Source: Escherichia phage ECML-359. Taken from it: 64,000 bases of DNA. The position numbers and the translations under genes are program-made. Below are positions 2,992-49,405 of this stretch, in pieces; within the stretch, counting starts at the first letter, position 1, and every line of letters starts with the position of its first letter. The notes beneath the pieces are model-generated. The model was not told the origin of the DNA. It saw nothing but the letters and a program-made list of their open reading frames with translations, and did not search any database. The stretch is from the sequence record OL631482.1. One strand, written 5' to 3'.

Positions 2992-4819
2992 GTGTCGCAT
3001 TCATCCAATCTTTACGCTGCTGGGAATCTTTACCGAAGAGCATTTCGAACAGTTCTTTCCAGTTGTCGGGCAATTGAACAACTTCGAATACAGGTTCGAG
3101 CAATACGCGTTTGTACTCAGCATCTTCCAGAGAACCAAGTCCCTTTATATATCTGATAGTATGCTTCGGAAGTTTATCCTTAGCTTCTTCATAATCAGGA
3201 AGAGAATAAAACCATTCTTGTTTATCTTTGAGCTGCGCAATAATAACAGGAGTTTTCACAAAGCGAATTCGTCCTTCATGGAACAGCTCTGGCCAGTTAC
3301 TGAAAAACGCCAATAACGATGGATAGATACTACCGACACCATCCACATCCGCATCTGTCATGATAGCAATGTTTCGGTAATTCATATTCTCGGCCGGTTG
3401 TCCAATCGTTAACCCAGTAATTGCACACACATCAAAGGCTTCGGCGTTCTTCATAACATCAACAGCTTTCAGGCCCCATGTGTTTTTAAACTTACCACGT
3501 AACGGATAAGCACCTTGCAATTCACGGTCGCGAACCTTGATAAATGGCCCGGTTGCAGAATCACCTTCGGTCAGGAACAGAGTCGTTTCCAGCTTATCAT
3601 TGCCCCATTCGTTGGCCTTGATATGCTTTTGCACCTTGGCCTTTGAAGCTTTCTTATTCGCCTTGGTCTCTGCTGCTTTCTCTGCAGCCAATTTACGGGC
3701 TAATGCAGCTTCAACAATCGGCATAATCAGCGGTTCATTTTTCAGAATAGCTTGCGCGATTTTCTTGGCATCAATCTTAATGTGATTTCGAATTTCACCA
3801 GCCGGAGAAGTCAATCGCTCCTTAGTCTGGGAATCAAATCGCATGTTGCTCATATCGCGAATGAACATAAGCATGGTGAGGCATTCCTTAACTCGTGCCT
3901 TTGTCACCTCAATGCCTTTATATTTGCGTTTAATGGCTGGCTGAAGATGTTCACAGATATCATCCATAACACATTCAACGTGGTGTCCACCATTCTTTGT
4001 ATGAATGTTGTTGACATAAGTCAACTGGCGGAAACCATCCGGGCTAGTCGTAAAGGCCATCGATACTGTATCAGTTTCCTGGATAACAACTTCGGTTCCG
4101 AATTGCTTGGCGAACTTCTTGAAATTGCCATCAACCTTTTTACCATTAAAGGTAAACTGAATATCTGGATAAACAACCGCAAGAGTCTGCAGACGGTCCA
4201 ATGTAATATCCAGATAAATCCGGGACAGGCTATTTTCTTCAAAGTGACTGAAGTCCGGAACAAAAATAACAGTTGTACCTTTACCCTTAGATTTCTTGGT
4301 AGACCAACCTTTGTTTTCCATACCATTGGAGCAGTTAACGGTGATTTCATTTGCGCCGTCGGCGGTAATCCCGGTGAACAATACAGAGAAAATATTGGTC
4401 AGAGAAGACCCGACGCCATTCATCCCACCAGTTTTACGTTCAGCATCATCACCGAAGTTACCACCTGCTTTTGGAATAGTCCATGCTGCAACCGGGCCAG
4501 GGATTTGTTCACCGTTTTGGTCTGTAACCATTGCTTGTGGAATACCACGGCCATTATCGGAAACCGAAATCTGATTATCTTTAATTTGGACATCAATTTT
4601 ATTGGCAAATTTAAAACTGGTGCGAATTGCTTCATCAACAGAGTTATCGATAATTTCATCAATCAGTTTTACAATACCAGGAACATAGCTTACGGACTTA
4701 TATTCACCAAACAAGAATCGCTCATGCGCTTCATTTGAACTGGAACCAATATACATCCCGGAACGTTTTTTGATATGCTCGACGTCCGAGAGTACTTTAA
4801 TTTCATTATTAATCATCAT
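2987..4819 (-). CDS. 39: DNA topoisomerase II large subunit (gp39 with gp60-equivalent region fused, 610 aa)
   Basis: GyrB-like ATPase/TOPRIM motifs (GMYIGSS, DNGRGIP); single uninterrupted ORF. Confidence 0.9.
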   Translation of the reverse strand: MMINNEIKVLSDVEHIKKRSGMYIGSSSNEAHERFLFGEYKSVSYVPGIVKLIDEIIDNSVDEAIRTSFKFANKIDVQIKDNQISVSDNGRGIPQAMVTDQNGEQIPGPVAAWTIPKAGGNFGDDAERKTGGMNGVGSSLTNIFSVLFTGITADGANEITVNCSNGMENKGWSTKKSKGKGTTVIFVPDFSHFEENSLSRIYLDITLDRLQTLAVVYPDIQFTFNGKKVDGNFKKFAKQFGTEVVIQETDTVSMAFTTSPDGFRQLTYVNNIHTKNGGHHVECVMDDICEHLQPAIKRKYKGIEVTKARVKECLTMLMFIRDMSNMRFDSQTKERLTSPAGEIRNHIKIDAKKIAQAILKNEPLIMPIVEAALARKLAAEKAAETKANKKASKAKVQKHIKANEWGNDKLETTLFLTEGDSATGPFIKVRDRELQGAYPLRGKFKNTWGLKAVDVMKNAEAFDVCAITGLTIGQPAENMNYRNIAIMTDADVDGVGSIYPSLLAFFSNWPELFHEGRIRFVKTPVIIAQLKDKQEWFYSLPDYEEAKDKLPKHTIRYIKGLGSLEDAEYKRVLLEPVFEVVQLPDNWKELFEMLFGKDSQQRKDWMNATL

Positions 4820-15488: not shown

Positions 15489-15686
15489 ATGCTCAAACTA
15501 TCTAGTCTAATTCAAGCCATCAAAGGCAGTCGTAAGCGAACGATTCTGGTCCTTTCGATACTCTGTTTAGTTCTACTCTGGAACTTCGTTGTTGCCCCTG
15601 TTGCATTGACACATGGTGTTATATTACCAGTCATTGCACTCGAATCAGTTGTAGATATTTTACTGGCATTAATCGGCCTTATATAG
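15489..15686 (+). CDS. plus-strand small hydrophobic protein (about 65 aa, two predicted TM helices)
   Basis: AGGAGG 4 nt before ATG; MLKLSSLIQAIKGSRKRTILVLSILCLVLLWNFVVAPVAL...; only non-overlapping plus ORF here. Confidence 0.35.
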   Translation: MLKLSSLIQAIKGSRKRTILVLSILCLVLLWNFVVAPVALTHGVILPVIALESVVDILLALIGLI

Positions 15687-47312: not shown

Positions 47313-47383
47313 TTTATTCTCCGTTTGTTTATTTGGTAACTCAGTATGGAATCATTATGCATCATGACCATCTGGTTGTACAC
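47313..47383 (-). promoter_or_regulatory. PeSL-like early promoter cassette (variant B leader)
   Basis: GTGTACA ... CATAATGATTCCATACTGAGTTACCAAATAAACAAACGGAGAATAA. Confidence 0.55.
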
Positions 47384-47429
47384 ATATACTAAATAAAAAT
47401 ACTTAATAAAACCATAAAGGAGAAAGTTT

Positions 47430-48176
47430 ATGATTTTATCCGGAAGAACTGTTGATGAACTCAATGAAAAAGTCCAGGCTGCCTTGGCTAATAATTGGTA
47501 TTTGTTTGGTTCTACTATGGTGTTGCCGAATACCCCTACAGATAGCAAAGAGCGTTTTTTCCAAACTATGTCCAGCTCGGAAACTCAGATACCGGGCCCG
47601 CCTGGGCCAAAAGGAGACCCGGGTGTACCAGGACCAAAAGGAGACCCAGGCGGGGATGGAAAGTCTTCTTATCAGATATGGCTTGACTTGGGAAATACAG
47701 GAACTGTTGATGATTTTTTAACTGATACAGCAGGAAAGAGGGAAAAATCCGAGGTGTTTTGGAGTGGTATAAACGTTCTATTAACTAATGGTGTGACGTC
47801 AAACATAATTAGTGTTTTAAAGGGGATTCCGCCGACTGCAGGGACTCTATCTCCGTTTTTTAGAACCACTGATGATAAGTTGTGGCCATATAACCAAGAC
47901 AGAAGCCTAATGTTTAAACTCAACCTTATTGGTAATTTTACAGGAGCCTCGCAAGCTCGAAGTATAACATTAAATTTCGTTGGAACCAACGGAAACACTT
48001 ATATACAGAATCGTCCGGAAAATGCTACAGATATTTTGTCTTTTACAACGTTCTTTAGCATTGATAAAGATGGGGCAATGGCTACCAATGGTACAGCTAT
48101 AACTGTTATGCCAAATGGCGGCAACTTTACAATAACATCTGCATTGTTAGTAGCCGAACAAACAGTGACTTCATAA
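47430..48176 (+). CDS. plus-strand collagen-like repeat protein (248 aa)
   Basis: AAGGAG 7 nt before ATG; G-X-Y tract GPPGPKGDPGVPGPKGDPGGDG; locally GC-rich; faced by a convergent terminator. Confidence 0.6.
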   Translation: MILSGRTVDELNEKVQAALANNWYLFGSTMVLPNTPTDSKERFFQTMSSSETQIPGPPGPKGDPGVPGPKGDPGGDGKSSYQIWLDLGNTGTVDDFLTDTAGKREKSEVFWSGINVLLTNGVTSNIISVLKGIPPTAGTLSPFFRTTDDKLWPYNQDRSLMFKLNLIGNFTGASQARSITLNFVGTNGNTYIQNRPENATDILSFTTFFSIDKDGAMATNGTAITVMPNGGNFTITSALLVAEQTVTS

Positions 48177-48177
48177 A

Positions 48178-48199
48178 CAAAAAAGGGCCGTATGGCCCT
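48178..48199 (-). terminator. hairpin AGGGCC-gtat-GGCCCT with T run on minus strand
   Basis: Stops minus-strand transcription entering the plus-strand gene antisense. Confidence 0.6.
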
Positions 48200-48394
48200 T
48201 AGATTGCACTCCAAAAATTATGGAATCTTATAGTATTGATAGCCCAGTTAACAAACATGCGAGTTTGCTTGGGAGTTGGTTTGCATATGTACTTATTGTT
48301 GATTCGTCTGCCAGTTTCCCGACAGACTGCTTCGAGATACCAGCGCCGACCTTTATTAGGTCTTCCATACGATAAGAAGACCTTGATTTCCTGG

Positions 48395-49405
48395 TTATCG
48401 ATAATAGGAATTGTGGTTGTCAAGATATACCTCCTCAACAAACTTGTCCCAGAACTTCATGTCCACCTTCGCAGGCATACCATTCTTAGCAGCCTGGATG
48501 GCCAGGACTTCAACTTCATCAACAGTATTTTCCAACAGGCCTTGAACTACTTTGAAAGGCATATCACCAGCTTTTATTGCTTTAATAATAGAAGCATTTT
48601 TAAGTGGATAAACCAGGTCACCAGTTTGATAGATTTCCTTCAGCTGATATCCAGCTCGGTAAGCATGACTCAATGCTTTCCAGTCAATACCTTCATTGGC
48701 TTCAGCCTTACGAGCACGTTCACCATATTCGGCATCAAGTTTATTCAGAGATTGCTTGAGCTCGATTAAAGACAGGGTGGTTTGGTACTTACGTCCAAGA
48801 ACAGTATAGAACGTTTGAGGACCTGTTTTCTCATGGTTATGAAATACCCATTCACAGAACTCGTTTTCAGGGAGCCGGTGCTTAATATCTTCTACTTTAG
48901 TTCGACGTTGTTTAATAGAACCATCTTCTTGATAATCGACCCACTGTTCAGGAATCTGGTTAACAATTGTCAGTACACCACGCAGTGCAGCCAATCGAGA
49001 ACCTTTAACACCATATTTGGAAGCTTGCTTACGGACGTACCCCAAATAGGCTTTCATGTTAGTTGTATAGAACCGCGAACGGTTGTCTTGAATAAACTTC
49101 CATACATCTGGTAAATCGGATTTGACTACCAGGTCAGCCGGGGTGTGAATCATATCCAGGGCAACGGTTTCGCCTTCGGCAGCCAGTTTAAAGAAATATT
49201 TCAGACTGAATAATTCATGGTCGATATCGTCTTTTGTGTTTTTGGTAGCCGTGTTATTCGTGTTCAGGTTTGTATGATTCATCGCGGTTCCGAGCAGGAT
49301 ATCTCGCGGATGAGGAACAAAGATTTCTTTAAAATCAACATCAGATTCTGGGGTGCTTGTTCCATAAAGGTGGCTACCGAAGTAGCCTTTCATAATAGTT
49401 TTCAT
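48395..49405 (-). CDS. pol-beta superfamily nucleotidyltransferase (about 336 aa)
   Basis: GS-x10-DVD motif (FGSHLYGTSTPESDVDF) plus downstream acidic strand (VALDM); C-terminal helical region; GAGGA site; ATGA overlap with upstream gene. Confidence 0.6.
   Translation of the reverse strand: MKTIMKGYFGSHLYGTSTPESDVDFKEIFVPHPRDILLGTAMNHTNLNTNNTATKNTKDDIDHELFSLKYFFKLAAEGETVALDMIHTPADLVVKSDLPDVWKFIQDNRSRFYTTNMKAYLGYVRKQASKYGVKGSRLAALRGVLTIVNQIPEQWVDYQEDGSIKQRRTKVEDIKHRLPENEFCEWVFHNHEKTGPQTFYTVLGRKYQTTLSLIELKQSLNKLDAEYGERARKAEANEGIDWKALSHAYRAGYQLKEIYQTGDLVYPLKNASIIKAIKAGDMPFKVVQGLLENTVDEVEVLAIQAAKNGMPAKVDMKFWDKFVEEVYLDNHNSYYR

Follow-up and report, generated by a model that had tools for sequence, protein, structure and literature searches.

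A plus-strand gene in the nrdC-mobD region of a T4-like phage encodes a modular protein with a DUF1737-like domain, a collagen-like tract and an Sf6-type knob: a candidate virion fibre

Introduction

A stretch of 64,000 nucleotides from Escherichia phage ECML-359 (record OL631482.1; hereafter the window) carries at positions 47430-48176 an open reading frame (ORF) on the plus strand. It is located in the nrdC-mobD hyperplastic region, and its neighbors, nrdC.5 to nrdC.11, mobD, rI, and tk of the T4 early region, are all encoded on the minus strand. What does such a gene make, how does it fit between genes that are read the other way, and where would its product act? An earlier note based on the sequence alone had singled out the interval 47313-48199 and described a gene for a collagen-like protein with a fiber-type tip. 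It suggested a horizontally acquired cassette encoding a virion fiber, a decoration protein, or an adhesin-like factor.

The 4-kb stretch around the gene is 99.2% identical to Escherichia phage pEC-M719-6WT.2 and 94-96% identical to EAWsc9, vB_YenM_P8, TH40, TH54, vB_EcoM_RZ, and DK-13. The taxonomy lines of the RZ, EAWsc9, and VR7 records place this group in Straboviridae, Tevenvirinae, Gaprivervirus (VR7 group); the window is thus Gaprivervirus DNA of the T4-like VR7/RZ group. In RZ, EAWsc9, and P8, the gene is annotated as "tail needle knob" or "tail-NK domain-containing protein". We propose a different reading, to which we assign a probability of about 0.45: the product would be a late-made, trimeric, C1q-like fiber on the surface of the virion, probably on its capsid.

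Results

The plus-strand ORF is a gene under purifying selection

The ORF starts with ATG and encodes 248 amino acids, as first described, and the strong AAGGAG site claimed upstream of it is indeed present 7 nucleotides before the start codon. This ribosome-binding site is kept as AAAGGAG or AAGGAG in phages AnYang, C6, and PEi20. The ratio of nonsynonymous to synonymous substitution rates (dN/dS) is 0.16-0.22 in comparisons with RZ, EAWsc9, and C6, 53 columns are invariant across 15 full-length homologs, and none of the three antisense ORFs inside the gene matched a PHROG family. Thus, the gene is real. The alternative raised by the earlier note, a plus-strand frame that is antisense noise over a true minus-strand gene, is ruled out by the dN/dS values together with the lack of PHROG matches for the antisense ORFs.

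The C-terminal domain is predicted to be an Sf6-type knob

The earlier note had suspected a fiber or receptor-binding tip at the C terminus, and profile searches bore this out. Residues 99-244 aligned to positions 30-175 of the 175-position PF16532 model (Phage_tail_NK) with 111.6 bits against a cut-off of 27 (E 4.2e-32), and searches of the PDB returned the structures from Sf6 (3RWN, 1.8e-31) and HS1 (4K6B, 5.1e-31). Among PHROG families, phrog_1030 matched at 2.4e-67, and BLASTP against full-length Sf6 gp9 showed 41% identity to its residues 139-282. On these profiles, the knob belongs to the PF16532 Sf6-type family.

Structure prediction agreed with this assignment. The AlphaFold2 (AF2) models used here are single-chain and were built on shallow alignments of 10 and 14 sequences. 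The knob, with a predicted local distance difference test (pLDDT) score of 54-90, is modeled as a TNF/C1q-like jelly roll and matched 3RWN_A in Foldseek at E 4.8e-14 with a template modeling (TM) score of 0.76 (target). The next-best folds were the PRD1 P5 spike knob (5e-5), the TNF-like lectins BC2L-C and PLTL, the exosporium protein ExsFA, and C1q-like proteins (C1QL).

The likeness to the Sf6 and HS1 needle knobs covers the C-terminal 145 residues and extends to ligand-binding positions. Leavitt et al. (2013; PMC3741392) described E146, K200, S248, and D250 of Sf6 in intimate contact with three bound L-glutamates. These residues align to E108, K163, S210, and D212 of the window protein, all four of which vary little or not at all within the family, while two peripheral glutamate contacts are changed (L255 to M217 and K277 to L239). 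Knob homologs with N-terminal extensions in RB43-type phages were already listed in 2013 as "function unknown" (PMC3741392).

The N terminus resembles the DUF1737 domain

Residues 1-50 appear to form a divergent DUF1737 domain, which for the window sequence is sub-threshold in Pfam. DUF1737 (PF08410) was the top Pfam family for all six N termini of the family (best E 2.9e-6), and one member (P0059) scored 26.2 bits, over the 24-bit gathering score. When a profile of the N termini was run against 1.84 billion proteins, it retrieved at 4e-5 to 8e-4 a set of small proteins (P0064-P0071) that are bona fide DUF1737 proteins, with 26.8-62.9 bits on PF08410. Alignment with hhalign to the DUF1737 domain of phi24B gp84 (residues 9-50) gave E 2.7e-5 and a probability of 74.5%. 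In the AF2 model (pLDDT 81), strands at 2-5, 24-32, and 42-48 and a helix at 8-20 make up a helix packed on a three-stranded antiparallel sheet, and this model matched "DUF1737 domain-containing" viral proteins in BFVD with TM (query) scores of 0.66-0.86. The PDB set searched holds no solved DUF1737 structure; in it, the N-terminal profile found chance coiled-coil matches only, and Foldseek with the N-terminal model found nothing below E 0.45.

In a cryo-electron microscopy preprint, a hexamer of the DUF1737 domain of phi24B gp84 is seen attached at the central pore of capsid hexons, and the authors call this a capsid-binding domain; gp84 is reportedly cleaved so that only this domain stays on the capsid (bioRxiv 10.64898/2026.04.10.717836). 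Like gp84 and the NanS-p esterases of Shiga toxin (Stx) phages, the window protein combines a small N-terminal beta-alpha-beta-beta domain and a Ser-rich linker with a functional distal module. This module is an esterase in gp84, whereas in the window protein it is a collagen/knob fiber.

The knob homology and the DUF1737-like domain, both missed by the earlier note, carry most of the functional information in the protein.

A collagen-like tract of variable length and a recurrent connector link the two domains

The G-X-Y tract recognized in the earlier note consists of eight uninterrupted triplets (residues 56-79). Because the tract is short, its score on the Pfam Collagen family (PF01391; 17.6 bits, E 0.0032) stays under the gathering score of 27.2; a homolog with 22 triplets (P0009) carries a precomputed PF01391 match. 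Triplets are absent from RB43, the Klebsiella/Citrobacter Pseudotevenvirus type, and Carvajevirus, and number 8-10 in Gaprivervirus, Dhakavirus, and Kanagawavirus and 15 in phage fHe-Yen9-01. With counts from 0 to 22 while the other three modules stay, the tract appears to behave as a spacer.

The connector that follows (residues 80-103) is modeled with short helices at 80-86 and 93-100, and no Pfam family covers it in a Pfam scan. It recurs, often many times, between the G-X-Y runs of metagenomic collagen-like phage fibers (P0012-P0017, P0019, and P0022). Together, the tract and the connector match PHROG tail-fiber families (phrog_15437 at 1.9e-8, phrog_13286, and others).

Promoter motifs of relatives point to late expression

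Upstream of the ATG, a perfect T4 late promoter sequence TATAAATA is found at -30 in AnYang and C6, at -33 in PEi20, and at -36 in fHe-Yen9-01, and RB43 has CATAAATA at the equivalent place. Because the 64-kb window has only four exact copies of TATAAATA, all on the minus strand, its presence at the same place in three lineages is unlikely to be due to chance. In the window itself, ACTAAATA (47388-47395, 6/8 matches to TATAAATA) overlaps TAAAAATA (47394-47401, 7/8). TAAAAATA occurs 14 times in the window, and the site alone is not significant. Late expression of the gene in the window phage is therefore suggested by the relatives and is plausible.

Homologs are patchily distributed and keep a common context

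The N-terminal half of the protein is present in 36 of 50,697 phage records. In Gaprivervirus, seven phages (eight records) carry it, and VR7 and many others have different DNA in its place. Further carriers are the Dhakavirus phages AnYang and C6 (record taxonomy), with which MN04 clusters at 71% identity; the Kanagawavirus phage PEi20 (record taxonomy) and its near-twin PEi26, with which Klebsiella phage vB_KM5a1-KLB31 groups; RB43-type phages of Citrobacter, Klebsiella, Enterobacter, and Cronobacter; the Tegunavirus fHe-Yen9-01; and three Carvajevirus-like Klebsiella siphoviruses. Pseudotevenvirus RB43 itself was found with the full-length query. Five Straboviridae genera have full-length homologs, in each case on the opposite strand and in the same hyperplastic region: in AnYang, C6, PEi20, and RB43, the gene adjoins nrdC.11 or is at most two small ORFs away, and in fHe-Yen9-01, it occupies another gap of the region, beside rI. 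This distribution supports the view of the gene as an accessory, non-essential cassette. A scan of IMG/VR yielded no full-length contexts beyond the isolates already found.

The C6 gene is a mosaic, in which the upstream and N-terminal part is AnYang-like, while the knob (dS 0.14) and the downstream DNA are window-like. This pattern places a recombination breakpoint within the gene, close to the collagen tract.

In Carvajevirus, the gene lies between terL, whose stop codon overlaps its start codon, and the portal gene. At this slot, the N-terminal domain is joined to the knob in Carvaje, VLCpiS10a, and BU9, whereas in a protein (P0058) from a contig whose TerL and portal are 88 and 86% identical to their Carvajevirus counterparts, it is followed by an unrelated repeat module of 400 residues. 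A conserved N-terminal domain with swapped distal modules is the pattern that would be expected of an anchor with an exchangeable tip. The P0058 protein (metagenomic; L034 8001-9563) has 520 amino acids and shows two tandem DUF1737-like domains, followed by about seven W-rich repeats of ~25 residues (xIQWRxxGxxxWxxL) and a Gly/Ser-rich C-terminal domain; the protein has no Pfam family.

Knob-only homologs provide a link to the head and the virion. In Mu-like myovirus contigs, the order is protease, major head protein, orf84, knob-only gene, p200, and head-tail adaptor (10 of 16 IMG/VR loci), and the knob-only gp119 of Kuttervirus Sajous1 was detected with 16 spectra in CsCl-purified virions (PMC10892097). 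Knob homologs in the head modules or purified virions of tailed phages without a needle would support a virion role of the window protein.

Directly upstream of the knob-only gene lies a small ORF, both in the Mu-like contigs (orf84; phrog_29297, L024 5713-5964) and in Sajous1 (gp120; L010 2213-2446). Sajous1 gp120 was found in virions with 4 spectra (PMC10892097). The two may be partners of the knob; their identification as a detached DUF1737 anchor was rejected, as neither has a Pfam match.

In VR7, the region beside hoc (107816-110045) contains a plus-strand collagen-like ORF196w of 427 amino acids, whose G-X-Y runs are very long and whose C-terminal domain is unrelated, as well as a second Hoc-like gene, ORF197w. 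We rejected ORF196w as a paralog of the window gene because its N and C termini are unrelated. The Gaprivervirus group seems to collect optional surface-fiber genes.

The gene sits in a bounded cassette between a hairpin and an early promoter

Comparison with VR7 delimits the exchanged segment. Homology in blastn stops at 47383 and returns at 48195, and the 811-bp cassette between these points contains a promoter-like region, the ribosome-binding site, the coding sequence, and most of a hairpin; its place in VR7 is taken by 397 bp with a small minus-strand ORF099c and a bidirectional hairpin of its own.

The same note had read the gene as horizontally acquired. The accessory character stands, since the gene is found in seven Gaprivervirus genomes and other DNA takes its place in VR7. 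The argument from base composition fails: the collagen tract is G+C-rich as claimed (0.639), whereas the remaining gene (0.390) is close to the window (0.398), and its G+C content at third codon positions outside the tract is similar to that of neighboring genes. The rise is a consequence of the Gly and Pro codons of the tract and is confined to it. Composition thus gives no sign of a foreign origin, and horizontal transfer inferred on this ground was rejected.

The hairpin begins 7 nucleotides past the stop codon and is common to the two converging transcription units. It folds with -12.7 and -14.3 kcal/mol (z about -2.5), and a hairpin is found 3' of the stop codon in every homolog examined. 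An A-run lies on its plus-strand 5' side, the T-run on the minus strand reads AAGGGCCATACGGCCCTT TTTTGTTTAT, and the plus-strand tail is AGATTGCA. Because the T-run is on the minus strand, the hairpin would primarily terminate the incoming minus-strand nrdC.11 transcript and be a weak terminator for the plus-strand gene. This supports the view of the earlier note that a convergent terminator shields the gene, although the hairpin would serve the gene itself poorly.

At the other end, the left cassette edge is the -35 element of a predicted sigma-70-type promoter, TGTACA-17-CATAAT, which would restart minus-strand transcription into 47312-47106 (phrog_6001). The antisense gene would accordingly fit exactly into the space that an early terminator and an early promoter leave between them. 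The right cassette edge is the stop codon of a small minus-strand ORF (48199-48441) located between nrdC.11 and the hairpin. This ORF overlaps nrdC.11 at the latter's 3' end, ends inside the hairpin, and takes in the final base of the interval 47313-48199. It is conserved yet unannotated in the closest annotated relatives, RZ and EAWsc9.

In the hyperplastic regions of T4-type phages, modules have been proposed to shuffle through promoter-early stem-loop (PeSL) units (PMC2839356 and PMC4122927). The stem-loop at 48183-48200 and the early promoter at 47382-47354 bracket the cassette; in PeSL units, too, a G+C stem-loop and an early promoter of the sigma-70 type border a variable segment. The hairpin of VR7 (4397-4418) adjoins the same promoter (4379-4351), again PeSL-like. 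The window differs in what is exchanged, an antisense gene of late type that has a promoter of its own. The unit of stem-loop and TGTACA-N17-CATAAT at the cassette border (window 47313-47383; VR7 4351-4418) resembles PeSL recombination motifs.

Other features of the window

The features are collected in Table 1. The claim that the gene is the sole plus-strand gene in the 64 kb was wrong, as a second one lies at 15489-15686. The EAWsc9 record names it "holin family protein". It is preceded by a late-promoter-like CATAAATA (15465) and an GAAGGAGG ribosome-binding site and adjoins genes annotated as dCTP pyrophosphatase and DNA primase in relatives.

Table 1. Positions of the gene, its predicted modules, and nearby elements in the window
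Feature	Position	Strand	Basis or remarks
Coding sequence	47430-48176	+	ATG start, 248 amino acids plus stop codon
Divergent DUF1737-like domain (beta-alpha-beta-beta), residues 1-50, proposed virion/capsid anchor	47430-47579	+	Pfam, profile, hhalign, AF2
Eight uninterrupted G-X-Y triplets, residues 56-79	47595-47666	+	7 Pro; collagen-like spacer (putative)
Connector, residues 80-103, S-Y-Q-I-W-L-D-L-G-N-T-G-T-V-D-D-F-L (SYQIWLDLGNTGTVDDFL...)	47667-47738	+	Two short helices in model
Predicted Sf6-type knob, TNF/C1q-like jelly roll, residues 104-248	47739-48173	+	PF16532, 3RWN/4K6B, Foldseek
Late-promoter-like A/T box	47388-47401	+	29-42 nucleotides upstream of ATG
Shine-Dalgarno AAGGAG	47417-47422	+	7-nucleotide spacer to ATG
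Cassette relative to VR7	47384-48194		811 bp; blastn homology to VR7 stops at 47383, returns at 48195
G+C-rich hairpin, 7-bp stem, 4-nucleotide loop	48183-48200		Begins 7 nucleotides past stop codon
Predicted sigma-70-type early promoter, TGTACA-17-CATAAT	47354-47382	-	Common to VR7; left cassette edge
Small minus-strand ORF	48199-48441	-	phrog_8921 1.5e-37; homolog of VR7ORF100c
Second plus-strand gene	15489-15686	+	65 amino acids, hydrophobic, membrane-like; phrog_2024 full-length 6e-26

Discussion

We propose that the gene encodes a modular, probably trimeric fiber, produced late and carried on the virion surface, with the capsid as the most likely site. The DUF1737-like residues 1-50 would anchor the protein to the particle, and the eight G-X-Y triplets together with the helical connector would form a stalk of roughly 10 nm. 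The knob would trimerize and hold L-glutamate at the subunit interfaces, as in Sf6 and HS1, and may offer a TNF/C1q-like surface for weak binding of cell-surface or environmental ligands. The gene would travel as a self-contained late cassette made up of late promoter, ribosome-binding site, coding sequence, and hairpin, placed antisense between the early terminator and the early promoter and exchanged by recombination among co-infecting T4-like phages. The suggestion of the earlier note, a virion fiber or decoration protein or an adhesin-like factor, is the best-supported reading, through the promoters of relatives, the DUF1737-like anchor, the knob, the genomic context, and the mass spectrometry of a knob-only protein in virions, and for the window phage, we infer it from these. 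In our estimate, the odds lean toward display of the protein on the virion as a fiber, while its seat on the capsid, taken separately, is a tentative placement that we put at somewhat less than even odds.

Several points weigh against this proposal. On PF08410, the window protein reaches 17.7 bits (E 0.0033), under the 24-bit gathering score of Pfam, the hhalign probability is only 74.5%, and the alignment behind the AF2 model of the domain included DUF1737 proteins, so that the model is biased in favor of this fold. For the full-length protein, AF2 gave a model of modest quality (pLDDT 64). The similarity to the phi24B gp84 domain is remote, and Tyr42, the aromatic "tooth" that anchors gp84, is not kept and has no counterpart in the Gaprivervirus and Dhakavirus sequences. 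The capsid role of DUF1737 comes from one preprint, on a podovirus with an unrelated capsid lattice. Hoc occupies the hexon centers in T4 and is encoded in the related phages VR7, JS98, and RB43, so a site like the one used in phi24B may be occupied already. A hexameric anchor with a trimeric stalk would also need a 6:2x3 arrangement. The window promoter matches the late consensus at only 7/8 or 6/8 positions, and near-matches are common in the AT-rich window. A literature search found no transcript, proteome, or structural data for the window phage or any full-length homolog.

The collagen and connector modules, which appear otherwise typical of tail fibers, are a further point against a capsid site and lead to another placement: an accessory tail, baseplate, or neck fiber, with the N-terminal domain on a six-fold tail structure and the knob aiding host recognition in the manner of side fibers or whiskers. 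This would agree with the PHROG tail-fiber matches of the G-X-Y tract and connector and with the many collagen-like tail-fiber-like proteins that share them, and a six-fold dock would suit a domain that is hexameric in phi24B. The knob of Sf6, moreover, sits on the tail (PMC3741392). However, the sole structural datum for DUF1737 puts the domain on capsid hexons, the Pfam scan showed no known tail-fiber attachment domain, and the gene, where its context is informative, is found among head and packaging modules and not among tail genes; we regard a tail location as unlikely. A late protein that never joins the virion but is released at lysis, as a soluble lectin-like trimer masking receptors, binding debris, or acting on neighboring cells, would account for a gene outside the structural block of the T4-like genome and for a full-length form without virion evidence, and soluble TNF-like lectins are among the fold neighbors of the knob. 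Neither a signal peptide nor a transmembrane segment is recognizable by eye, though, the knob-only homolog was found in purified virions, and the N-terminal domain looks like a conserved anchor whose tips are exchanged; in our judgment, release at lysis is quite improbable.

The name given to the gene in GenBank and PHROGs would make it a tail needle or tail tip that plugs the channel like Sf6 gp9 or P22 gp26. Its basis is the strong homology to the Sf6/HS1 knob. Yet BLASTP aligned only residues 139-282 of gp9 and found no counterpart of residues 1-138, that is, of the channel plug and coiled-coil shaft, in place of which the window protein has the DUF1737-like domain, collagen tract, and connector. 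Sf6 and HS1 are P22-like podoviruses, whereas the window phage is a T4-like myovirus with a contractile tail whose tip is built of baseplate hub proteins (gp27 and others are annotated in VR7); in T4, the tail tip is the gp5/gp5.4 spike. The gene, furthermore, lies in the nrdC-mobD early region and not with head-completion genes as in a P22-like podovirus, and it cannot be an essential channel plug because it is absent from close relatives. We find a needle function scarcely credible. By its domain content, the whole protein is not a member of the tail-needle family, and the label "tail needle knob" is misleading, as it names one domain and not the function. The patchy distribution, the hyperplastic region, and the degenerate promoter of the window lineage might also suggest a decaying or selfish passenger without function for the phage, but the gene is under purifying selection, and all modules and ligand-binding residues are kept across five genera and in siphoviruses. 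This makes a passenger very improbable.

The proposed virion fiber has architectural rather than familial counterparts. PRD1 P5, C1q, and BclA carry collagen-like stalks, and PRD1 P5 and C1q/BclA-type trimers likewise combine an N-terminal particle-anchoring part with a C-terminal TNF/C1q-like trimeric knob; no sequence homology to them is detectable. T4 Hoc, a fiber-like display protein proposed to be an adhesin or environment sensor (PMC10385173), is non-essential, as the window protein would be. In contrast to the N-terminal anchor proposed here, Hoc is a monomer of Ig-like (immunoglobulin-like) domains with a C-terminal capsid-binding domain, and the Pfam scan at E up to 1 found no Ig or Hoc family in the window protein. 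In related phages, hoc genes coexist with this gene family. A bolder version would have Straboviridae and the unrelated Carvajevirus siphoviruses share a portable, Hoc-independent capsid-display system, in which DUF1737 feet form rings of six on hexamers of the major capsid protein and carry two trimeric collagen-stalked, C1q-like fibers per ring, with L-glutamate-loaded knobs serving as lectin-like adhesins and a freely exchangeable distal module (knob, repeat module, or esterase). We consider this extension doubtful.

The knob homologs of RB43-type phages (2013) and the automated annotation of the gene were already known. What appears to be new is the reading of the N-terminal domain as DUF1737-like, a build of four modules in which the collagen spacer varies in length, the insulated arrangement of an antisense late cassette, and the prediction of a C1q/PRD1-P5-like display fiber. 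A literature search found no paper describing this architecture, the cassette, or the display-fiber prediction.

If the fiber model is wrong, the gene would be an ordinary accessory ORF of the hyperplastic region. If it is true, dozens of myovirus and siphovirus genes labeled "tail needle knob" would receive a corrected name, and the capsid binding of DUF1737 would be extended to a further virus family with a new cargo; should the portable system be true as well, DUF1737 would be a general plug-in anchor for decorating phage heads. The locus would be a clean example of a late gene parked antisense in an early operon region with neither program disturbed. Beside Hoc, T4-like phages would gain a second optional display fiber with a 50-residue anchor, a tunable collagen spacer, and a trimerizing knob, a compact natural design that could serve phage display and help to explain the adherence of therapeutic phages to mucus or cells.

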